In this document: piece by piece, positions 1-7,627 of the stretch
Layout: each line of letters begins with the position of its first letter
How positions within the stretch are numbered: position 1 is the first letter of the stretch
IMG/VR virus record: IMGVR_UViG_2693429700_000006
Strand: one strand, 5' to 3'
Origin: a virus
Lineage: Duplodnaviria > Heunggongvirae > Uroviricota > Caudoviricetes
Length of the DNA stretch: 11,769 nt
Position numbers and translations under genes: made by a program
The notes under the pieces: generated by a model
The model's input: only the letters and a program-made list of their open reading frames with translations
The model's database searches: none
Told to the model about the DNA's origin: nothing

Positions 1-124
1 GGGAAGGCTGGGCCATACTCCTCCGGCAGAAGCAGAAAAAGCTTATTATGCTTCCATCGGAAACGATGATCTGGCAGCCTGAGTTCACAGATAAAACACT
101 CTCCAGGAAACCCGGGGCGGTTCA
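1..124 (+). mobile_element. Right terminus of an IS3-family insertion sequence (IS629-like): 3' end of the orfB transposase reading frame (2..82, ...AEAEKAYYASIGNDDLAA-stop) plus terminal inverted repeat ending ...CCAGGAAACCCGGGGCGGTTCA at 124
   Basis: Reverse complement of 99..124 (TGAACCGCCCCGGGTTTCCTGGAGAG) is a near-identical inverted copy of 11637..11662 (TGAACCGCCCCGGAAATCCTGGAGAC). TGA...TCA termini are typical of the IS3 family. The plus-strand frame ending at 80..82 reads like a transposase C-terminus. The element extends beyond the window start. Confidence 0.75.
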
Positions 125-543
125 GGTTTTGGCGTGTATTCTGGAACAGGTTTCCCTTTTTTTCTGCATGCTTCTGCCCTGAGTCTCCAGTTTTCCTCAT
201 GACGCCGGTTCGTCATTTTCTGCATTGCTGAATAAATTTTTGATTCAGTAATGTCTCTTAGTTGCATTCCTGCGAAATGTTGAAGCCAGAATCCGATCCG
301 GCTTTTGTCATCGTCCAGTGATTTTTTATGTGCTTTCTCTTCAAGCCACCTGACACACGCTTCCTCGAACGTTATATCAGGTATTTCACCAAGTTTGCTG
401 ACCCGCCATGCTTCAGCCTTTAGCTTGTCATGGAGTTCTGTCGCCTGCCTTTTGTCCTTTGTTCCAAGAGACTGTTTAAATCTTTTACCGTTCGGCAATG
501 TGAAACTGGCGTACCATATTTCACCTCTGCGGAAGAGTGACAT
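85..543 (-). pseudogene. Tyrosine recombinase (phage integrase) N-terminal fragment, truncated by the IS insertion at 124/125; only about 139 native codons remain and the last 13 codons plus stop are IS-derived
   Basis: N-terminus [34 protein letters not shown]... resembles the N-terminal arm-binding domain of Rac-type lambdoid integrases, which are normally about 400 aa. The reading frame runs into the IS terminal repeat and stops at 85..87. The xis-int overlap arrangement is conserved. Confidence 0.8.
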
Positions 544-770
544 TTTCTTTCCTCTGTTATGCCATCACCCGCGCTCACCTGGACAGTATGCAGCGGAGAC
601 TGAAGAGCCGCAATGCAGGCTTGTCGTGTTGTGAGGTAAGGAGATTTATTCTTAGTGGGATCTTTGCGTGTTGCCTGAAGACGCCCTGTGCGTATCCAGT
701 TAATGGCAGTCGGTCTGGATATCTTGAGAAAATGACAGGCCTCATCGAGAGTGAGGCTGTATGGCTCCAT
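420..770 (-). CDS. Excisionase / recombination directionality factor (HTH_17-like DNA-binding protein), 116 aa from the internal Met ([31 protein letters not shown]...)
   Basis: The HTH motif is typical of Xis/AlpA-type excisionases. The ATG at 768..770 overlaps the TAA of the upstream gene as TAATG, and AAGAGGTG lies 6 nt upstream. The 3' end overlaps the int start as in lambda xis-int. The longer ORF starting at 854 is rejected. Confidence 0.7.
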
Positions 771-1075
771 TATTTCACCTCTTGCTGTGACATTGTTGAA
801 AAATGGATACCAGCTCGTTGCTGCCAGACGATCCAACCGAGAGTCATATCCCATGCCATGTATTCGTTATCGCCGTTTTTTGCTCTCCGACGATCTACTA
901 AGTCACCGAAACGCTTTTCCATGAATAATTCATAAGCTTCGCGTTCATCTGGTTCTACTTCCAGAGATAGGAGTGCGATTTCATAAGCACGGCGCTCAAT
1001 ATCGTCTCGCACGTCAAGGCTGCTGATACGCTCTTTAATTTCTTTAATCAGTTCTTTGTCGGTAAAAGTGGTCAT
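770..1075 (-). CDS. yfdT: Small acidic hypothetical phage protein, 101 aa (YfdT-like)
   Basis: Intact ORF, translationally coupled to neighbours by TAATG overlaps at both ends. Size and position in the P-Q-R-S-T order match the CPS-53 yfdPQRST cluster of E. coli K-12 as recalled (101 aa). Confidence 0.55.
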   Translation of the reverse strand: MTTFTDKELIKEIKERISSLDVRDDIERRAYEIALLSLEVEPDEREAYELFMEKRFGDLVDRRRAKNGDNEYMAWDMTLGWIVWQQRAGIHFSTMSQQEVK

Positions 1076-1437
1076 TATGCTCCAGCCTCCGGTGCTTTTG
1101 GCATTACTGCCCAGTGAGTGATATTGACGTTTTCAAGGTCCCCAACCTGAAATGTCCACTGCCATTCTCCGGTTTCTTTTTGTCCCCAGGTGTACCAGAG
1201 AGAACGCCAACCAATTAGCCAGCCTTCTCCGTTAGCATCGAATAACAAAACACTTTCATTTGCTGGTGGCAGTTCAGTTGACACTGGTATTACTTTGTTT
1301 TCCTGTGCTGCACATTTAGCTTCAAGCGCATCGAATTTACGCACCAGGTATTCAGCATCTGTTTCATTTACTTTCAGATCTCGCGGTACACATCTCCCAC
1401 GAAGAAACCCTTCCATTTCGAAAACATTCATGCGCAT
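1075..1437 (-). CDS. yfdS: Hypothetical phage protein, 120 aa, Trp-rich C-terminal half (YfdS-like, possibly DUF551)
   Basis: Intact ORF with its start overlapping the stop of the upstream HD-domain gene. Length and order match K-12 YfdS (120 aa) as recalled. Confidence 0.55.
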   Translation of the reverse strand: MRMNVFEMEGFLRGRCVPRDLKVNETDAEYLVRKFDALEAKCAAQENKVIPVSTELPPANESVLLFDANGEGWLIGWRSLWYTWGQKETGEWQWTFQVGDLENVNITHWAVMPKAPEAGA

Positions 1438-1964
1438 TTGCGTAACTCCGATAACTCGTTAAAGCGTTCCATAAACATCCCGTAGGCATGGCCCGGTGCC
1501 AGTGGAATCACGTTGAACATCTCTGTTGCCGGGATACCTTCCAGTACAGGCCAGAAAGAGCCATCATCAAGCCCGAGATCGCGGCGTTCGGTTGCCAGCA
1601 TGATGAGATCGGCATATTTCACGGGCGTACTCATAACTGGGGGTAACCCGTATTTCTCACGGATTACGGCGTCTATTTTTTCTTCCATTTGTTTATAGTC
1701 AGGAAGAAGGCGTTTCAGTGGTGCGGGAATGTCCTGGCAATACGCTTCTGTTGCATCATGCATTAACGCTTCAAAAGCAAATTCCTGCGGCACCAACTGG
1801 CTGCAAAGAACCGCATGTTGGGCGACGCTGTAGAAGTGCGAAAGATGACCGGCAAAGCGACAGATATTTGAAAGGGAAACCGCGATATCGTTAATATCGA
1901 TGTCGTCTTTATTTATCCTGTCATAATAAAAATGCTTCCCGGAAAAAGTTTTAATAAATGACAT
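1428..1964 (-). CDS. yfdR: HD-domain metal-dependent phosphohydrolase (YfbR-like 5'-deoxynucleotidase fold), 178 aa from the ATG at 1962..1964
   Basis: H...HD signature (FAGHLSHFYSVAQHAV ... LMHDATEAY). GGAG lies 7 nt upstream of the internal ATG, giving 178 aa, the recalled length of K-12 YfdR. The ORF-track GTG start at 1991 is less likely. Confidence 0.7.
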   Translation of the reverse strand: MSFIKTFSGKHFYYDRINKDDIDINDIAVSLSNICRFAGHLSHFYSVAQHAVLCSQLVPQEFAFEALMHDATEAYCQDIPAPLKRLLPDYKQMEEKIDAVIREKYGLPPVMSTPVKYADLIMLATERRDLGLDDGSFWPVLEGIPATEMFNVIPLAPGHAYGMFMERFNELSELRKCA

Positions 1965-2091
1965 TTTGTTCTCCACGTATATGCGCTGCACCGCGCTGAA
2001 TTTTGGTTAAAGAAAACCCTCGCCATCAGGCGATTATTGAGTTAATTACGTTTCTATAAATGCCCCCGCAGGGGCATTTGCAGTAATGAAA

Positions 2092-2916
2092 TCAGGCGGT
2101 GAAAGTACCAATAAAGGTTTCTACTTTGCTGTCTTTGAATTTTTCAACAAGCAGATTACGAAATTCGTTAGCCATTTCTTCCTGTACTGCTTCCAGCTGA
2201 ATAATGCGCAGAACCAGTACAGGGCGATCACCAGTGATAATGCTGAGGCGTAATTTAAACGGACGTTCTTTCAGGCCTTCAAACGGAACGCATTTAAACT
2301 CAAATGCTACTGGCATAATGTCTTTAGTTTTCGCTTCGACAGACTCCATCAGAGAGCGTTTGCCGCTGAAGTCATTGTCTTCAAAATCAGCGGTCTGGTT
2401 TGCTTCAATCGTGATTTTACGGACCGCCGCAGCCGCTTTTGTTGCCTGAATGGCGTCACCATTAGCATCAAAGCCCACAAGGTAGTCGGCCCAGTCTTCA
2501 ATCCATTCTGCCAGTGACTTCTGGGAGTTACGCTCGCCGTTAACAGACAACAGGGCAGAGAACGGTGCTGTCTTTTTCAGTTTGAGAGTGGCGGTGTTAT
2601 CTGCGTGACCTGGTTCATCAATAGTACCCAGGTTAAGCACACTGACGGCTCGCATATTATCAGCATCGATAAAGCAGCGGGTGCTTTCATCTGCAAGATC
2701 TTTAGAATAACGGGTAAAGTCATCGATGCTGGCAGTGGAAAGCGCACCACGGAAACGGAAGCGATTTAAATTAAATTTTTCCAGATCATGAATGCGGAAA
2801 TTCTCAGGCAATGCCACAGCATCGGCACCAATCTTACTGATAATTTCATTAACACCCTGAGCAGAAATAAGGGCATGGATTTGATTAATTTCGGTTGCGT
2901 CTAAGTTCTGAGACAT
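2092..2916 (-). CDS. yfdQ: YfdQ-like protein (DUF2303 family), 274 aa
   Basis: Intact 274-aa ORF with GAGGA 5-6 nt upstream of the ATG. Length and position match K-12 CPS-53 YfdQ as recalled. No catalytic motif recognised. Confidence 0.65.
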
Positions 2917-2981
2917 AATAAGTCCTCACTATATAAAGATATTCAGTGATGAGATAAATAATCAGTTAATTAAGAACGATA

Positions 2982-3344
2982 TTAATGACCTGCTGCGCGG
3001 AGTTTTCCGTCAGGCTCACCGGCAAGAGTCAGTAATTGTCCCTGGTCTTCCTGCAGAATAGTCAGGCGACCACCGCGATTGACATACATCGGTGTTTCGG
3101 TGGTGTCTTCTTCGGAAATTTTCCCGCGGTTAGTCGGGCGAACATATGAGAGTTTGTGTTTGATTTTCACACGGTTCTCATCAAATGGTTCGATTTCCAG
3201 GTTGAGCGAGACCTTACCTTTGGTTTTCGTGTTCATCACACCGGAAGCGACTTCACTGAGAACTGCGCCGATTTTGGTTTCAAATACGCCGCCGTCCAGC
3301 TCCCCGATAAATGCCTGCACATCAGTACTGCGTTCGCTAGCCAT
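2982..3344 (-). CDS. yfdP: YfdP-like hypothetical protein, 120 aa from the internal ATG (MASERSTDVQAFIGELDGG...)
   Basis: GAGGAG lies 8 nt upstream of the ATG at 3342..3344, giving 120 aa, the recalled K-12 YfdP length. The frame stays open upstream to 3530 but that extension has no RBS and overlaps structured leader sequence. Confidence 0.55.
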   Translation of the reverse strand: MASERSTDVQAFIGELDGGVFETKIGAVLSEVASGVMNTKTKGKVSLNLEIEPFDENRVKIKHKLSYVRPTNRGKISEEDTTETPMYVNRGGRLTILQEDQGQLLTLAGEPDGKLRAAGH

Positions 3345-3965
3345 TTTGCTGCTCCTCATCATATCGACCCTGCAAGGTCGGTTAGTTTCTCCACAAAACA
3401 GAGAAGAACACCTGCGGTGGCAGCCGCCCGGATGGATTGGGTTATGAGCCCGTCGTCCGGTGATGCTCTTCTCTGTTTTGTAAAAAGAGCGGTACCAGCC
3501 GGAAGCAAGTGTACAAACTGGTACCGCCAAAGCAGTGGCTGTTGTGGTGACCGGTGCTGATCTCCGGCTTGCGGTTATTTCAGACTCTCACGGGCGTTTA
3601 ATTGCCCCGCCGAACAGCTCTTTTCCGCAATAGCTGCAATGTCTTTCGCGCATCAGTCTGCGCATTCACCACAACGCTGAGAGCACTTAGCCAGTTACGG
3701 CACCACACTTTGTCGCGGTTCCATAAATGCCCTCATCGTTGCACCCTGGTCTCTTCCCAGGCGTCAAACCGAATCGCCACGCTGGTTAGGCGTCTTATCA
3801 GCATCATCATTGACTTGCACATTCCGGCTACCTGGTTTGTTTGCTCGAGCAAGGAGTGGATTGTCCCCTTTAACGTCACCAGACCGCTAACGACGCATGT
3901 GCCATACGCCGTGTTACAACCAAATTTTGTTTTAATCTTGCCTGTGTTATGTTTCTTTTAGATAC

Positions 3966-3993
3966 ATTGTGTGTCTCATGGATACATTGTCAA
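3966..3993 (-). promoter_or_regulatory. Candidate leftward early promoter (pL-like): -35 TTGACA (plus 3988..3993), 16-nt spacer, -10 CACAAT (plus 3966..3971), overlapped by two 10-bp direct repeats GATACATTGT (3961..3970 and 3981..3990)
   Basis: Read directly from the minus strand: TTGACAATGTATCcatgagacacACAATGTATC. It sits immediately downstream of the repressor terminator and upstream of the leftward operon. Confidence 0.4.
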
Positions 3994-4020
3994 GTATAAA
4001 AAAACCTGCCGAAGCAGGTT
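3994..4020 (-). terminator. Rho-independent terminator of the repressor gene
   Basis: Minus strand reads AACCTGC-ttcg-GCAGGTT followed by TTTTTTT, starting 13 nt after the repressor TAA stop. Confidence 0.6.
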
Positions 4021-4032
4021 CATAAATATTGA

Positions 4033-4707
4033 TTAGGCCTTTATTGTGTATCTTCTTGGTTTTCCCGAGAAAATCACTGTACCAATTATAGAGCAATTAC
4101 CGTTAATCTTAATGTAAGGCTCAGGCCAGTTTGGGTTTAATGCTTTGAGATAACGCTGTGTTCCATCTTCTATCAATCGCTTGAAGGTGGTTTCGCCTGT
4201 ATCGTGCATCAATGCAATAACGTCGTCACCGTGGCAGGCAGGGACTTCGGGATCAACAAAAATCATGTCTCCAGGGCGGTACTCATCAATCATTGAATCA
4301 CCAATCACCCGCAAGATATAAGTCATTTCGCCACAGGGTACAGGGCAGGGATACGTTTCTGCTGTGCTCAAATCAACCTCAGAATAGCCAACTTCTTTCC
4401 ATGCTCCGGCCTGTACCCATGATATGACAGGGACTAACGTTATTTGTTTGTTAGTGATTGAAACATCAGGTTTTTTTGTGATGTTCGTTGTCTGGTGTTC
4501 TTGATCAAGCCATCCGACAGGCAGGTCGAAACATTTTTCGATGTGCCGTGCCATGCTGTCACCGATATTTTTAGTAGCGCCATCCCCCATAAACCTGCTG
4601 GTCTGGGTTGGCTCGCGATCAATCATGGTGGCAAAGGATGAATTTCCGCCAACACCATCTCTCAGTTTTCTGGCGTTAGACCGCCGGATGTCATGGATTG
4701 TTTTCAT
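4033..4707 (-). CDS. CI-like prophage repressor, LexA/S24 peptidase family (N-terminal HTH, C-terminal autocleavage domain), 224 aa
   Basis: C-terminal S24 signature with catalytic Ser in VIGDSMIDEY and a downstream Lys (TFKRL). Divergent from a Cro-like gene with operator palindromes between them. There is no good SD, consistent with a leaderless pRM-type transcript. Confidence 0.85.
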   Translation of the reverse strand: MKTIHDIRRSNARKLRDGVGGNSSFATMIDREPTQTSRFMGDGATKNIGDSMARHIEKCFDLPVGWLDQEHQTTNITKKPDVSITNKQITLVPVISWVQAGAWKEVGYSEVDLSTAETYPCPVPCGEMTYILRVIGDSMIDEYRPGDMIFVDPEVPACHGDDVIALMHDTGETTFKRLIEDGTQRYLKALNPNWPEPYIKINGNCSIIGTVIFSGKPRRYTIKA

Positions 4708-4723
4708 AACGAAATTAAAACCT

Positions 4724-4742
4724 TTGTACCGATAAGGTACAA
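4724..4742. promoter_or_regulatory. Operator-like palindrome TTGTACC-gataa-GGTACAA in the cI/cro intergenic region; a second TACC-gta-GGTA element lies at 4779..4789
   Basis: Perfect 7-bp inverted arms with a 5-bp spacer. The second site shares the half-sites but with a 3-bp spacer and overlaps the predicted pR start region. Confidence 0.5.
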
Positions 4743-4747
4743 GTATC

Positions 4748-4775
4748 TTGAGGGTTCATTTCAATCATGTAATAT
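4748..4775 (+). promoter_or_regulatory. Candidate pR-like promoter for the cro-like gene: -35 TTGAGG (4748..4753), 16-nt spacer, -10 TAATAT (4770..4775)
   Basis: Read from sequence; flanked by the two operator-like elements. Not unique, alternative hexamers exist. Confidence 0.35.
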
Positions 4776-4797
4776 GTATACCGTAGGTACATATTGT

Positions 4798-4998
4798 ATG
4801 AAAGCGTACTGGGACTCTTTAACCAAAGAACAGCAGGGCGAGTTGGCCGGAAAAGTTGGCTCAACACCTGGCTACTTACGGCTGGTTTTCAATGGTTATA
4901 AAAAAGCCAGTTTTGTGCTGGCTAAAAAACTTGAGCAATGCACGTCAGGTGCAATTACGAAATCTGACTTAAGACCGGATATCTATCCGAAAGATTAA
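4798..4998 (+). CDS. Cro-like HTH regulator (YdaS-like), 66 aa (MKAYWDSLTKEQQGELAGKVGSTPGYLRLVFNGYKK...)
   Basis: Small HTH protein divergent from the repressor, with about 90 bp of operator-containing spacer. C-terminus ...RPDIYP resembles the YdaS/Cro-like family as recalled. The ORF-track start at 4693 would overlap the repressor start and the promoter, so it is rejected. Confidence 0.7.
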   Translation: MKAYWDSLTKEQQGELAGKVGSTPGYLRLVFNGYKKASFVLAKKLEQCTSGAITKSDLRPDIYPKD

Positions 4999-5029
4999 CA
5001 GAACACCTTCAATTTTTAACCACAGAACG

Positions 5030-5593
5030 ATGAGGCTAACCGTGGGTAAGCATCACTGGAAAGTAGAAAAACAGCCTGAGTGGTACGTGAAAGCTGTCAG
5101 AAAAACTATCGCAGCGTTGCCGGGTGGTTACGCTGAAGCAGCTGACTGGCTGGATGTAACAGAGAACGCATTATTTAACCGCCTTCGTGCCTATGGCGAT
5201 CAGATTTTCCCGCTGGGATGGGCAATGGTTTTACAGCGCGCGGCTGGCACTCACTACATTGCGGATGCTGTCGCACAGTCTGCTGGTGGGGTGTTCGTAT
5301 CGCTTCCTGAAATTGAGGAAGTAGAGAACGCCGATATAAACCAGCGCCTGCTGGAAGTCATTGAACAGATCGGCAGTTATTCAAAACAGATTCGTTCAGC
5401 AATTGAAGACGGTGTAGTGGAACCGAATGAGAAGACAGCAATTAACGACGAGCTGTACCTCTCAATTTCGAAGCTGCAGGAGCATGCAGCACTGGTCTAC
5501 AAAATTTTTTGCATTTCAGAAAGTAATGACGCCCGCGAGTGTGCAGCTCCGGGCGCCGTGGCGTGTCGTGACTGTGGAGAAACTAACGCATGA
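5030..5593 (+). CDS. Putative CII-like / YdaT-like lysis-lysogeny regulator, 187 aa
   Basis: Placed immediately downstream of the cro-like gene as in cro-cII and ydaS-ydaT pairs. Family assignment is from context and weak recollection only. An alternative GTG start at 5042 with GAGG upstream is possible. Confidence 0.5.
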
Positions 5594-5768
5594 ACAGTTT
5601 AACAACACACTACCGTCGCTCGCAACTGATTGCGCTTCCTGTACCGGGTGGAAAAGCGAAGGTGGAGTATTGCTATGCAGTAAATGTACCAGGTGACAGG
5701 GAAATTGTAACCCACAGCTTTGCAGAGTGGGCTGTGGGTGATTTCAACCGGCAGAAGGAGACAGTCCT

Positions 5769-5948
5769 TTGCGACAAGTTAACCGCTGGTTCAAAGATCA
5801 CTACGGAGTGCCCGTCAGAGTCATTCGTTGGGAGCCGGAAACACAACGGGTTATCTACCTCCGCGAAGGCTATGAGCATGAGTGCTTCAGCCCGCTCGAA
5901 CAGTTTCGTCGTAAATTCAGGGAAGTAGAGGTCGGTCATGAGCACTAA
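5769..5948 (+). CDS. Small ORF (59 aa, TTG start) hidden below the 60-aa ORF-track cutoff; alternatively the C-terminal half of a frameshifted gene starting at 5590
   Basis: AGGAG at 5755..5759 lies 9 nt before the TTG. The translation looks protein-like ([59 protein letters not shown]). Its stop overlaps the start of the next gene as ATGAGCACTAA. Confidence 0.35.
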
Positions 5949-6276
5949 ATTAACCGGCTATGTATGGGATGGTTGCGCTGCATCAGGCATGAAATTATCC
6001 AGCGTGGCAATTATGGCCCGCCTGGCTGATTTCAGTAATGACGAAGGTGTGTGCTGGCCATCAATTGAAACCATTGCCCGTCAGATTGGCGCGGGGATGA
6101 GTACCGTCAGAACGGCTATCGCACGGCTGGAAGCAGAAGGCTGGTTAACGCGTAAGGCGCGTCGCCAGGGTAACCGCAATGCGTCGAATGTTTATCAGCT
6201 TAACGTTGCGAAGCTTCAGGCAGCGGCATTTTTTCAACTGTCAGATTCTGACCCGTCAAAATTTCTTACCTGCTGA
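5938..6276 (+). CDS. Winged-helix (HTH_36-type) DNA-binding protein resembling the N-terminal domain of phage replication initiators, 112 aa; probably truncated
   Basis: Signature ...WPSIETIARQIGAGMSTVRTAIARLEAEGWL... is typical of the HTH_36 family. Only 112 aa, followed by a 290 bp region with no intact ORF. Confidence 0.6.
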   Translation: MSTKLTGYVWDGCAASGMKLSSVAIMARLADFSNDEGVCWPSIETIARQIGAGMSTVRTAIARLEAEGWLTRKARRQGNRNASNVYQLNVAKLQAAAFFQLSDSDPSKFLTC

Positions 6277-6568
6277 CAAGTGGGTAACGCCACGCATGAT
6301 GACGAGAACTACCGGAGTAAGCGAAGCCAGGTGCCAGTTAATACTGACTCAGTTAGTTCTGGCGGGTCTGGCGAAGGATAACGGCGGGTACGGGAATAAA
6401 TTCAGACGCTGCCAGTAATGGCGGTTTCCTGCTGTGAAAATGGGCGGCTGGTGGGTGTTGGTAGCACCTGCCAGCCATTCGCTCATGCTTACTGGTCACA
6501 AGCGAACCACGGCCCACTGCTTTAGCGCAAAAGCAGAGTGAGCCTACCAGAGTTACGCTTACTGATCC

Positions 6569-7621
6569 ATGAAAAATACTGTAAAAATAAACAGTATTGA
6601 TTTAATCAACGCTGATTGCCTGCATTTTATTCAGTCCCTGCCTGATGATTCCATTGACCTGATTGTTACCGATCCGCCTTACTTCAAGGTGAAACCTAAC
6701 GGTTGGGACAATCAGTGGAAAGGGGACGAAGATTACCTTAAGTGGCTGGACCACTGTCTGGCCCAGTTCTGGCGGGTGTTAAAACCTGCCGGAAGCCTTT
6801 ACCTGTTCTGTGGGCATCGCCTGGCATCTGATATTGAGATCATGATGCGTGAACGTTTCAACGTGCTTAACCATATCATCTGGGCGAAGCCGTCCGGACG
6901 TTGGAATGGGTGTAATAAAGAAAGTCTGCGCGCATATTTTCCTGCCACAGAGCGCGTTCTGTTTGCTGAACATTACCAGGGGCCATATCGCGGCAAAAGT
7001 GACGGCTATGCAGCAAAAGAAAGGGAACTCAAACAGCACATAATGGCACCGCTGATATCGTATTTCAGGGATGCTCGTGCCGAACTGGGTATAACGGCAA
7101 AACAAATTGCCGAAGCCACAGGTAAGAAAAATATGGTTTCCCACTGGTTTGGTGCCAGTCAGTGGCAGTTGCCGAATGAGGCTGACTATCGGAAGTTACA
7201 GGCACTGTTTTCCCGTATAGCGGCAGAGAAGTTTCAGGAACAACAACTGGAACAACCACACCACCAGCTGGTGGCATCTTATGATTCACTGAATCGCAAA
7301 TATTCTGAATTGCTGGATGAGTTTAAATCTCTCCGGCGCTATTTCTCCGTATCAGTCTCCGTGCCTTATACCGATGTCTGGATGCATAAACCCGTTCAGT
7401 TCTACCCGGGTAAACATCCGTGTGAGAAACCGGCGGATATGCTCAGGCAAATAATCAATGCCAGTAGTCGACCTGGTGATCTGGTTGCTGATTTTTTTAT
7501 GGGATCCGGTTCCACAATAAAAGCAGCAATGGCGCTGGGGCGTCGGGCCTTAGGTGTTGAGCTTGAGTCAGAGCGGTTTAACCAGACAGTGAAAGAGATA
7601 AACGAGCTGGTGGGGAAATAA
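6569..7621 (+). CDS. Orphan DNA N6-adenine (or N4-cytosine) methyltransferase, beta class, 350 aa
   Basis: Motif IV DPPY at residues 35..38 (IVTDPPYF) and motif I FxGxG near the C-terminus (DFFMGSGST). This IV-then-I order defines the beta class. No restriction endonuclease gene is adjacent. Confidence 0.85.
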
Positions 7622-7627
7622 TCTGGT

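Follow-up and report, generated by a model that had tools for sequence, protein, structure and literature searches.

An intact M.EcoGII-family adenine methyltransferase gene in a decayed prophage, with a position probably derived from deletion

Introduction

The closest described relatives of the gene examined here are M.EcoGI and M.EcoGII, which are carried by prophages of E. coli O104:H4 C227-11 (Murray et al. 2018, PMC5778455). Both enzymes methylate any adenine, whatever the sequence context; both are unexpressed in the lysogen, and their constitutive expression damages the cell (PMC5778455). The M.EcoGII gene is prophage-borne, and very similar copies occur in enterobacterial phages (PMC5778455). 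Members of this family combine a helical, HTH-containing target-recognition domain with a long charged interdomain linker, and the site-specific M.PflMI has a similar fold from which the charged linker is missing (PMC11551740). Sources label the M.EcoGII family "site-specific DNA-methyltransferase" by default. The chromosomal beta-class adenine methyltransferases YhdJ and CcrM share the Pfam family, catalytic fold and motifs with the enzyme considered here but differ from it in having other target-recognition regions and site-specific recognition.

A second group of systems shares a genomic slot with this methylase rather than a function. In lambdoid phages, Stx and other "moron" cargo lies between Q/pR' and the lysis genes, the same slot that the methylase occupies. 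The likeness probably extends to control, with expression only after Q-mediated antitermination coupling the cargo to lytic growth. The difference is that the methylase is no toxin but a DNA-modifying enzyme serving the phage itself.

We analyzed a gene of this kind in a viral sequence of 11,769 nt (IMG/VR record IMGVR_UViG_2693429700_000006), referred to below as the window; coordinates are window positions, and all features located by them lie on the + strand, except the deletion junction, which is given without strand. A first-pass annotation had described the gene as an orphan methyltransferase forming an insertion immediately before the lysis cassette, where Q and late-promoter sequence normally sit. 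We assign a probability of roughly 0.88 to the reading that it is an intact M.EcoGII-family beta-class AdoMet-dependent N6-adenine methyltransferase in a prophage remnant, with a position derived from deletion; within that reading, membership in the family, the intact motifs, the gene's conserved place in relatives, the deletion junction and the boundaries formed by IS elements are established. The methylase itself is already known, as many E. coli genomes and phages carry an annotated copy that is identical or nearly so, and it adds nothing new to a family whose biochemistry is published and in use as a tool. The new lead from our analysis, and one that could matter, is a structured leader motif immediately upstream of the gene.

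Identity of the methylase gene

The methylase gene (6569-7621) appears in the open reading frame list as an intact frame of 350 aa plus stop codon with an ATG start. The Pfam profile N6_N4_Mtase (PF01555) matches residues 29-341 at E = 2.2e-42, covering profile positions 1-220 of 221 with 145.9 bits against a cut-off of 26.7. PHROG 67 matches at 2.2e-102, and the annotation of NZ_CP148401 carries the protein as DNA-methyltransferase WP_000799656.1. Motif order is that of the beta class, with catalytic motif IV, DPPY (residues 35-38, codons 6671-6682), N-terminal to AdoMet-binding motif I, FMGSG (an FxGxG motif; residues 310-314, codons 7496-7510), and the target-recognition region between them. 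These results bear out the earlier description of a phage-borne, beta-class orphan amino-methyltransferase with DPPY near one end and FxGxG near the other, about 270 residues apart; the exact separation is 271 residues. Inactivating substitutions in related copies had been raised as a concern, and both motifs turn out to be invariant: DPPY, F310, G312, S313 and G314 are unchanged in 31 relatives (alignment A1) and in a further alignment, A4, of 14 relatives down to 48% identity.

Comparison with characterized enzymes places the protein in the M.EcoGII family. It is identical to M.EcoGII at 281/349 residues (81%) over the full length and to the active ancestral variant Anc291 at 309/348 (89%), values that are approximate since both reference sequences were machine-read from the PDF of Table S1 of PMC11551740 and contain a few reading errors. 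Like M.EcoGII and M.EcoGI, it shows the beta-class motif order, a length of 349-350 aa and, probably, a helical target-recognition domain with charged linker, and it is prophage-borne and lacks a restriction partner. It differs from M.EcoGII in 19% of residues (23% in the target-recognition domain) and in sitting in a deleted remnant that has no Q. Scores against equivalog models for YhdJ (NF008572; 109.7 bits in two separate stretches, cut-off 292) and CcrM (NF050803; 68.1 bits, cut-off 830) fall far below threshold. A scan of IMG/VR for relatives returned near-identical copies only and so added no diversity.

The absence of an adjacent restriction partner, also remarked upon previously, holds on closer inspection. 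A winged helix-turn-helix (wHTH) gene remnant and a replication pseudogene lie upstream and a holin gene downstream, and Pfam, PHROG and RefSeq annotation reveal no restriction endonuclease gene adjoining the methylase, so the locus does not qualify as a type II restriction-modification system.

Genomic position and a deletion upstream of the methylase

The slot just upstream of lysis genes or stx is the usual position of this family in the phages we examined. The gene order in mEp460 is Q, two small genes, methylase, holin, and in SfV it is Q, terminator, orf47, orf48 (the methylase), terminator, then S, R and Rz. In phiP27 and the Stx2a phage EH2246, Q is followed by a small gene, the methylase, tRNA genes and stx, so that these two share the late-operon place after Q, as annotated, but differ in that tRNA genes and stx, not the holin gene directly, come after the methylase. 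Thus an annotated Q stands upstream of the methylase in four lambdoid phages (SfV, mEp460, phiP27 and EH2246). In Yersinia phage P840 and the N15-like phage YDC107_1, the methylase is again followed by lysis genes. The gene therefore occupies the same place in SfV, mEp460, phiP27, EH2246, P840 and YDC107_1 as it does here, and the earlier description of it as inserted upstream of the lysis cassette does not fit this pattern.

The resemblance to intact phages is close. The methylase is 99.7% identical in amino acid sequence to that of phage cdtI, and its gene is ~98% identical in DNA sequence to the mEp460 gene and ~97% to SfV orf48. The window matches cdtI, mEp460, Ayreon and SfV at 97-99% DNA identity from the 3' part of the wHTH gene through leader and methylase to the terminator, and in mEp460, cdtI and Ayreon the match extends over all or most of the holin gene. 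Upstream of this stretch, these four complete phages have Q, the nin region and an entire replication gene, in contrast to the window, which is without ~5-6 kb of these sequences. The methylases of phiP27 (L24), EH2246 and Stx2c phages are more distant (81-85% amino acid identity) and are preceded by the same small gene and leader; the Stx2c record is unannotated. This small wHTH gene immediately precedes the methylase in 59 loci. In intact temperate Enterobacterales phages, the module consists of a small wHTH gene, a terminator, the structured leader, the methylase and a second terminator; in the cases where we inspected annotation or sequence, it is placed just upstream of lysis genes or stx and, in lambdoid phages, downstream of the Q antiterminator.

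What sets the window apart is a junction at 6261-6262, with 2 nt of microhomology (AT), between a left arm of O-gene and iteron-like sequence and a right arm from the interior of the wHTH gene. Matches to the left arm in thousands of E. coli prophages end at 6262-6264, and homology to methylase-bearing phages on the right begins at 6261. Among 5,426 complete E. coli genomes a single one has the junction, as does one IMG/VR contig. On the left, an O-like replication initiator gene (5938-6276) is authentic in sequence up to 6262, amounting to ~108 of 313 codons; Pfam HTH_36 and PHROG 11896/391 match its N-terminal part only, RefSeq records it as a pseudogene missing the C-terminus, and the ATCC 11775 prophage has an intact 313-aa homologue. 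On the right, a 3' remnant of the wHTH gene (6261-6418; 52 codons plus stop) is recognized by tblastn and by PHROG 331 at 2.4e-15. Residues 16-67 of mEp460 gp52 match window 6260-6415 at 98% in tblastn, and gp52, SfV orf47 and phiP27 L23 (all PHROG 331) are the counterparts that normally precede the methylase. The remnant has lost its own start codon and now forms the tail of a chimeric 79-aa ORF (6179-6418).

These features point to a deletion of ~5-6 kb that brought the initial third of the O-like gene up against the interior of the wHTH gene, a size estimated from mEp460, SfV and the ATCC 11775 prophage, none of which is the direct ancestor. From the junction point to the holin gene, the ATCC 11775 prophage carries the O-like gene, yfdN, a Dam-like methylase, RusA, KilA-N, DUF968 and Q; the sequences lost in the window include ori, the nin region with its Dam-like methylase, Q and pR'. 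No Q gene was found anywhere in the window by ORF list, Pfam, PHROG or RefSeq annotation. The first-pass annotation noted a position where Q normally sits. The methylase stands there because the deletion removed Q and pR', a cause that could not be read from the letters alone, and a place upstream of the lysis genes is normal in its relatives. The apparently unusual position is best understood as the scar of a deletion within a prophage remnant that has insertion sequences at both ends.

The module has nonetheless moved over longer times: terminators flank it, and lambdoid phages, N15-like phages and Vibrio phage VHML, whose backbones are unrelated, all carry it. It is therefore mobile on an evolutionary scale.

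Expression and role

The window in its entirety is what remains of a decayed prophage, with IS sequence at either end. The right end of IS1203 (IS3 family) at 1-129 truncates the integrase gene and is 99.2% identical to 15924-16051 of the RefSeq-annotated sequence L002, and the left end at 11638-11769 (start approximate), placed by alignment to L002, truncates the terminase large-subunit gene. That alignment is unbroken to L002 14870; in L002 the last position of the terminase pseudogene is 14738, and the coding sequence of the IS1203 transposase begins at 14792. Scans of the window for tRNAs and Rfam families found nothing.

In intact relatives, the module would be silent in the lysogen and, judging from gene order, probably made late in lytic growth under the control of Q. 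Synthesis at that stage would leave progeny phage DNA heavily methylated and able to evade many host restriction systems. Protection of phage DNA from restriction, one of two roles suggested at first pass, remains the most likely one. The other, epigenetic action in lysogens, is improbable given that M.EcoGI and M.EcoGII are unexpressed there and harmful when expressed constitutively (PMC5778455). A literature search combining M.EcoGII with mitomycin, prophage induction or late genes gave nothing on expression timing, and a comparative paper on pR' does not mention methylases.

Whether the copy in the window is expressed at all is a separate matter, and we regard it as almost an even question whether it is dead cargo, that is, a reading frame intact only through the recency of the deletion, never expressed and without function for host or phage. 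Q, pR' and ori are gone, along with the greater part of the replication gene, IS1203 cuts both integrase and terminase, the upstream wHTH gene has no start codon, and the junction is limited to one lineage. Yet the ORF, leader and terminator show no damage and match their counterparts from viable phages at 98-99% identity, and the repressor-like ymfK gene is intact. Furthermore, from the early-promoter region to the methylase, a consensus scan of the + strand gave a single weak, in-gene terminator-like match (4868-4885), so that transcription could conceivably run through from the early operon once the repressor is lost. As a result of the deletion the methylase lies in the early right operon, and, as a weaker possibility than the RNA proposed below for the leader, SOS-triggered loss of repressor might induce it without Q. 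Lack of expression would be compatible with our main reading, as it bears on expression and not on the identity of the gene.

Sequence specificity and structure

Methylome sequencing had been suggested as a way to find the target motif of the enzyme. Membership in the M.EcoGII family (81% identity to M.EcoGII and 89% to Anc291), for which methylation in any context is published (PMC5778455), means instead that a methylome without any motif is to be expected, and the expectation of a discoverable target is corrected accordingly. On the basis of homology, we infer that the protein encoded at 6569-7621 probably methylates adenine non-specifically. It may have some sequence preference, since 19% of positions differ from M.EcoGII and 23% do so within the target-recognition domain.

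A stronger version of this idea, in which the enzyme is a sequence-specific orphan with its own motif that shields against one restriction system or acts as an epigenetic regulator in the lysogen, strikes us as improbable. Site-specific enzymes of similar fold do exist in the wider family, such as M.PflMI (PMC11551740), the target-recognition region is less conserved than the N-terminal catalytic half (77% versus 89% identity to M.EcoGII), and "site-specific DNA-methyltransferase" is the default label across sources. Against this, the 81-89% identity to enzymes proven to be non-specific runs the full length of the protein and includes the charged linker, precisely the element that site-specific M.PflMI lacks (PMC11551740), and a regulatory role in the lysogen is at odds with M.EcoGI and M.EcoGII being off there and harmful if constitutive (PMC5778455).

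The long stretch between the two catalytic motifs had been read as a longer linker than in compact relatives, possibly a target-recognition insertion. The length is real, at 271 residues, but it contains no new insertion: relying mainly on the published model (PMC11551740), we take it to be the helical HTH target-recognition domain and charged linker of the family. The catalytic Rossmann domain would accordingly be split, with DPPY in its N-terminal half, FxGxG in its C-terminal half, and the helical HTH-containing domain and charged linker between the halves. An AlphaFold model agrees in predicting an all-helical central region at residues ~146-255 (7004-7333; target-recognition domain and linker), with helices at 146-173, 177-184, 190-194, 204-223 and 231-255. 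The model is of moderate confidence (mean pLDDT 67.6, only ~50-80 in the central region) and was built from an alignment that was shallow, with no sequence below 76% identity, and we draw no new conclusions about the target-recognition domain from it. The central region is 77% identical to that of M.EcoGII. Every Foldseek match in the PDB at E <= 0.001 is a DNA N6-adenine or N4-cytosine methyltransferase of the same fold, a list comprising M.BceJIV, MboIIA, TTHA0409, CcrM, RsrI, HpyAVI, PvuII and type III Mod subunits, the first five being the best (E = 5e-12 to 5e-10).

As for how this enzyme came to its place, insertion of the methylase as a mobile moron at that exact spot in the prophage, rather than placement by deletion, would accord with the terminators on both sides of the module and with its presence in lambdoid, N15-like and VHML backbones, but is very improbable given that the wHTH and replication genes are both cut at one point with the 2-nt microhomology that is a deletion signature and that relatives of the right arm carry Q and other genes upstream.

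A structured leader upstream of the methylase

Immediately before the methylase ATG is a conserved leader of ~126 nt (6441-6566; alignments A3, A5 and A6). Its predicted helices are P1 (6441-6445/6512-6516), P2 (6446-6457/6465-6476), P3 (6478-6486/6498-6506), P4 (6517-6523/6530-6536) and P5 (6546-6550/6562-6566). Pair counts in the alignments show these helices to be conserved and covarying, and RNAalifold independently predicts P1 and P2. With a covariance model of the leader, 69 of the 91 sources searched yield a single match at each locus, and the rest of the 573,707 nt yields none. The same motif fronts loci of the M.EcoGII type, whose methylases are 93-95% identical to M.EcoGII. The leader is without a Shine-Dalgarno sequence, and a GATC that is near-invariant (at least 90% of aligned sequences) ends 2 nt 5' of the ATG. 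The predicted loop of P4 is palindromic, and P5 ends 2-3 nt before the start codon.

At gathering thresholds, no family in Rfam 15 matches the leader in a search of the whole window, and at E values up to 10 the sole match is a chance one on the opposite strand (E = 4.6). Strings of the leader sequence had no match in a literature search. We tentatively propose, with somewhat less than an even chance of being right, that the leader is an undescribed structured cis-regulatory RNA in which P1-P3 form a three-way junction followed by hairpins P4 and P5. The alternative that the hairpins are DNA palindromes for a dimeric protein is disfavoured, as the many G-U pairs in P2 fit only an RNA of the + strand, though P4 alone could still be an operator. 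No convincing sigma-70 promoter was detected ahead of the methylase (two weak matches against 3.8 expected by chance), and reading the conserved TGTGAAAAT as an extended -10 element was rejected because spacing and hexamer are inconsistent across loci.

The leader is of interest because it is conserved and covarying and fronts a methylase that lysogens keep silent and whose over-expression slows growth. Its action could be to gate the translation, or the fate of the transcript, of an enzyme that is toxic when constitutive, and so could explain how the methylase stays off until late in infection. Its ligand could be the enzyme, the product of the small wHTH gene just upstream, or a metabolite, for which SAM and SAH are candidates. 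If regulatory, the leader would offer a tractable case of RNA-level control over a phage anti-restriction gene.

Terminator and lysis cassette

Directly after the methylase stop codon, a terminator scan located an intrinsic terminator at 7628-7654 (GGCCAC-GTCAA-GTGGCC followed by TTTTTATTT) with an RNA fold z of -3.2. A rho-independent terminator is annotated at the same place in SfV and is also listed under the Ayreon match. The lysis cassette then begins with a P21-type holin of 71 aa (7689-7904) that has the dual-start motif MKSM, matches Pfam Phage_holin_2_1 at 7.6e-34 and is annotated as essD in RefSeq. The remainder of the cassette (7909-9594), defined by Pfam, PHROGs 7 and 13 and the RefSeq annotation of L002, comprises a DUF1327/YdfR gene (7909-8253; Pfam DUF1327), a lysozyme gene (8597-9130; Phage_lysozyme) and Rz (9127-9594; Phage_lysis) with an embedded Rz1-like ORF. 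A longer, GTG-started version of the holin ORF, beginning at 7626, would take in the terminator hairpin.

The methyltransferase is an intact member of the M.EcoGII family

The gene reported in the first-pass annotation was recovered as a plus-strand ORF at 6569..7621 in the ORF list, with an ATG start and a product of 350 aa, DPPY at residues 35-38, FMGSG at 310-314, 271 residues in between, and lysis genes downstream. Pfam N6_N4_Mtase (PF01555) covers residues 29-341 (E = 2.2e-42) and PHROG 67 ("DNA methyltransferase") also matches (E = 2.2e-102). Scores against the NCBIfam models of YhdJ and CcrM fall far under their cut-offs, and the protein is therefore neither of these enzymes. It is identical at 281 of 349 positions (81%) to M.EcoGII, the non-specific adenine methyltransferase of an E. 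coli prophage, and at 309 of 348 (89%) to Anc291, in both cases with no large gaps, when compared with the sequences in Table S1 of PMC11551740 as machine-read text containing a few errors. Anc291 is a reconstructed ancestor that was active in experiments on both DNA and RNA (PMC11551740). The N-terminal catalytic half is the closest to M.EcoGII (89% identity), with lower values for the target-recognition domain (77%) and the C-terminal half (75%). M.EcoGII is itself a 349-aa beta-class enzyme encoded on a prophage and silent in the lysogen, and copies described as "very similar" occur in phages of enterobacteria (PMC5778455); the gene studied here fits it in length, class, prophage location, and phage copies.

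Neither the catalytic nor the cofactor motif varies among 31 relatives or among 14 sequences with identities as low as 48%, a set that includes ORF17 of Vibrio phage VHML; inactivating substitutions in related copies, which the first-pass annotation had named as grounds for doubt, did not appear. By sequence, then, the gene is shown to encode an intact M.EcoGII-family enzyme. Its closeness to non-specific enzymes does not support the expectation of a specific target motif, nor does the silence of M.EcoGII in the lysogen favor the suggested epigenetic role there.

The linker between the two motifs, described as longer than in compact relatives, is predicted to contain a long helical stretch, which is probably a feature of the M.EcoGII family rather than peculiar to this gene. 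An AlphaFold model of moderate confidence (mean pLDDT 67.6, from a shallow input alignment) has residues 146-255 as all-helical, and every PDB neighbor at E <= 0.001 is a DNA N6-adenine or N4-cytosine methyltransferase with this fold. The predicted helical region agrees with the published M.EcoGII model, in which a four-helix-bundle HTH target-recognition domain lies at 160-237 and a long charged linker is thought to confer non-specific binding (PMC11551740).

The methyltransferase is already known, as identical proteins are present in RefSeq annotation and the records of several sequenced phages list near-identical genes. DNA identity is 98-99% to mEp460, cdtI, Ayreon, and PhiR40_1, 96.7% to SfV (orf48), and ~89% to Stx2c phages; the cdtI "putative DNA methylase" shares 99.7% aa identity, and the enzymes of Stx2c phages, phiP27, and the Stx2a phage EH2246 share 81-85%. 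In a large protein collection, 2,958 relatives score E <= 1e-20, the best 120 of which are nearly all ~350 aa and spread across Enterobacterales, and the 99%-identity cluster has 4,060 member sequences. The family's founding member is biochemically characterized and available commercially as a reagent. The methyltransferase finding as originally stated is of low interest.

A deletion accounts for the placement of the gene

The position of the gene had been regarded as unusual, occupying the place of Q and the late promoter. Comparison with intact phages instead indicates that the gene sits in the usual slot of its family and that Q was lost by a lineage-specific deletion. In mEp460 the order is Q, a hypothetical gene, the small winged-helix (wHTH) gene gp52, methyltransferase, and holin; in SfV it is Q, a terminator, orf47, orf48 (the methyltransferase), a second terminator, and S R Rz; and in phiP27 and EH2246 it is Q, small gene, methyltransferase, tRNAs, and stx, with phiP27 alone carrying a GIY-YIG nuclease gene between Q and the small gene. 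Lysis genes come directly after the methyltransferase in Yersinia phage P840 and in YDC107_1, an N15-like phage. The family's normal home is therefore just upstream of lysis or stx genes and, in the four lambdoid phages (mEp460, SfV, phiP27, EH2246), also downstream of Q. The methyltransferase module is flanked by terminators and occupies a late-operon slot in intact phages; a strong intrinsic terminator, annotated in SfV, follows the methyltransferase stop codon at 7628-7654. Many 933W-like Stx2a phages retain just a 35-codon C-terminal fragment (residues 316-350, 66% identity; e.g. NC_019442.1 23941-24045), which suggests repeated loss of the module from the Q-stx region.

No Q gene was found anywhere in the window by ORF list, profile searches, or RefSeq annotation. 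Homology to methyltransferase-carrying phages starts abruptly at 6261. Left of this point the sequence is shared with thousands of E. coli prophages, in the 5' portion of their O-like replication gene; this match stops at 6262-6264, and both the alignment and the raw sequence reveal a 2-nt microhomology, AT, at 6261-6262. The junction joins iteron-like repeats within the replication gene (6243-6262, CTGACCCGTCAAAAT...), the presumed phage origin, to the interior of the small wHTH gene. With the left breakpoint in these repeats, the remnant has lost its presumed replication origin as well as Q. RefSeq labels the replication gene a pseudogene without its C-terminus. The wHTH remnant (6261-6418) has lost its start codon and first 15 codons, and what is left of it makes up the 3' end of a chimeric ORF of 79 aa (6179-6418).

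From the junction point to the holin, the intact left-arm prophage of E. coli ATCC 11775 carries a 313-aa O-like gene, yfdN, a Dam-like methylase, a LexA-like gene, RusA, KilA-N, DUF968, and Q. Judged against relatives, ~5-6 kb, including ori, Q, and the late promoter pR', has been lost from the window. Among 5,426 complete genomes of E. coli the junction occurs in just one, that of a chicken isolate (NZ_CP148401), and it occurs in just one IMG/VR contig (11,738 nt, 99.98% identical to window 1-11738). A deletion confined to one lineage, in a prophage undergoing decay, explains where the methyltransferase lies in the window. The deleted stretch is also home, in intact relatives, to a second, Dam-like N6-adenine methylase of the nin region (13260-13913 in locus L003 and 1071-1724 in locus L001), which mEp460 oddly annotates as a PAPS reductase.

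A conserved, probably structured leader precedes the methyltransferase gene

The 150 nt between the wHTH gene and the methyltransferase ATG are conserved among phages whose methyltransferases are just 48-85% identical, including Yersinia P840, the N15-like YDC107_1, and Vibrio phage VHML, and the hairpin stems in this leader vary in sequence while pairing is kept. A five-helix, RNA-like motif lies on the plus strand at 6441-6566, with counterparts in relatives (L001 6169-6314, L005 2997-3142, L004 3360-3506, L010 2321-2465) and in 60+ other loci. Its helices, in a structure written by hand, are P1 (6441-6445/6512-6516), P2 (6446-6457/6465-6476), P3 (6478-6486/6498-6506), P4 (6517-6523/6530-6536), and P5 (6546-6550/6562-6566).

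We sampled 80 genome loci from ~35 Enterobacterales genera and aligned the 57 distinct leaders with MAFFT. In this alignment 79.3% of cells pair, while sliding the 3' partners gives no more than 47.6%, and both sides change in 18 pairs, compared with 12.8 ± 1.5 after shuffling, a value reached in 0 of 500 shuffles. Realignment to a fitted model, which leans towards the structure, raises the double changes to 29 of 38 pairs (15.0 ± 1.7 shuffled), distributed as 12/12 in P2, 7/9 in P3, and 5/7 in P4; P1 is nearly invariant and P5 hardly covaries. RNAalifold, unaided, predicts P1 and P2, with compensatory changes in 14 of 15 predicted pairs, and P2 contains numerous G-U pairs, consistent with a plus-strand RNA.

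A covariance model built from the MAFFT alignment and run over 573,707 nt from 91 sources returned exactly one match per source in 69, all on the plus strand and abutting the methyltransferase gene, and none away from it. The model did not find the motif in the ATCC 11775 prophage, which itself lacks this methyltransferase, or in the Photorhabdus, Xenorhabdus, Pantoea, and Erwinia endophytica loci. M.EcoGII-type loci, with enzymes 93-95% identical to M.EcoGII, share the same leader. A gap of 2-3 nt separates P5 from the start codon, and Enterobacterales leaders have no Shine-Dalgarno sequence before it, whereas the VHML leader has AGGAAG inserted at this point. At least 90% of aligned leaders carry a nearly invariant GATC whose end lies 2 nt ahead of the ATG. 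No Rfam 15 family matches the leader, and its sequence strings were not found in the searchable literature. The leader is probably a structured cis-regulatory RNA; it lifts the overall interest modestly and is the part worth follow-up.

The wHTH protein (PHROG 331, ~65 aa; intact copies at L001 5955-6158, L005 2793-2987, and L004 3153-3350) could be a controller-like regulator of the methyltransferase. Its gene lies directly 5' of the methyltransferase in 59 loci, among them Photorhabdus and Xenorhabdus loci without a detectable leader.

Proposed working of the enzyme

By analogy with published properties of the family (PMC5778455), the enzyme would methylate adenines without sequence preference and, given the harm done by constitutive expression, would be silent in the lysogen. 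It would be produced late in lytic growth and so protect packaged DNA from many restriction systems (PMC5778455), and in this general form the earlier idea of phage self-protection seems right. That no restriction partner adjoins the gene also held, with no neighboring nuclease gene in the ORF list, Pfam and PHROG profiles, or RefSeq annotation. The remnant still has an intact repressor-like gene, ymfK, and an intact early operon that comprises ymfT, ymfL, and the genes following them, and a consensus scan of the plus strand from the early operon to the methyltransferase gave a single weak, in-gene terminator-like match (4868-4885). Read-through into the methyltransferase after repressor loss is therefore possible.

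Window boundaries and lysis genes

The window begins with the last 129 nt of one IS1203 (IS3-family) copy (1-129), which cuts an integrase (ORF 85-543, minus strand), and ends with the first ~130 nt of an IS1203 copy in the same orientation (~11638-11769), which cuts the terminase large subunit (11047 onwards). With IS1203 ends on both sides, the window has the look of a prophage remnant assembled from short reads, as a contig broken at IS repeats.

Downstream of the methyltransferase are a P21-type holin (7689-7904), DUF1327/YdfR, lysozyme, and Rz. In some phage records, mEp460 among them, the annotated holin begins at a GTG further upstream (92 aa, window 7626-7904), an extension that would contain the terminator hairpin 7628-7644. 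A more plausible product is the 71-aa form from ATG 7689, which has the dual-start motif MKSM that is typical of P21 S. The hydrophobic N-terminus of the lysozyme (8597-9130) suggests a signal-anchor-release endolysin partnered with a P21-type pinholin. Nested within Rz, in a different frame, is an ORF for an Rz1-like lipoprotein (…LIMVVGCSS…) at 9302-9553. Between the YdfR and lysozyme genes, a 90-aa minus-strand ORF (8219-8491), labeled hypothetical protein in RefSeq, matches PHROG 2411 (unknown function) at 5e-52.
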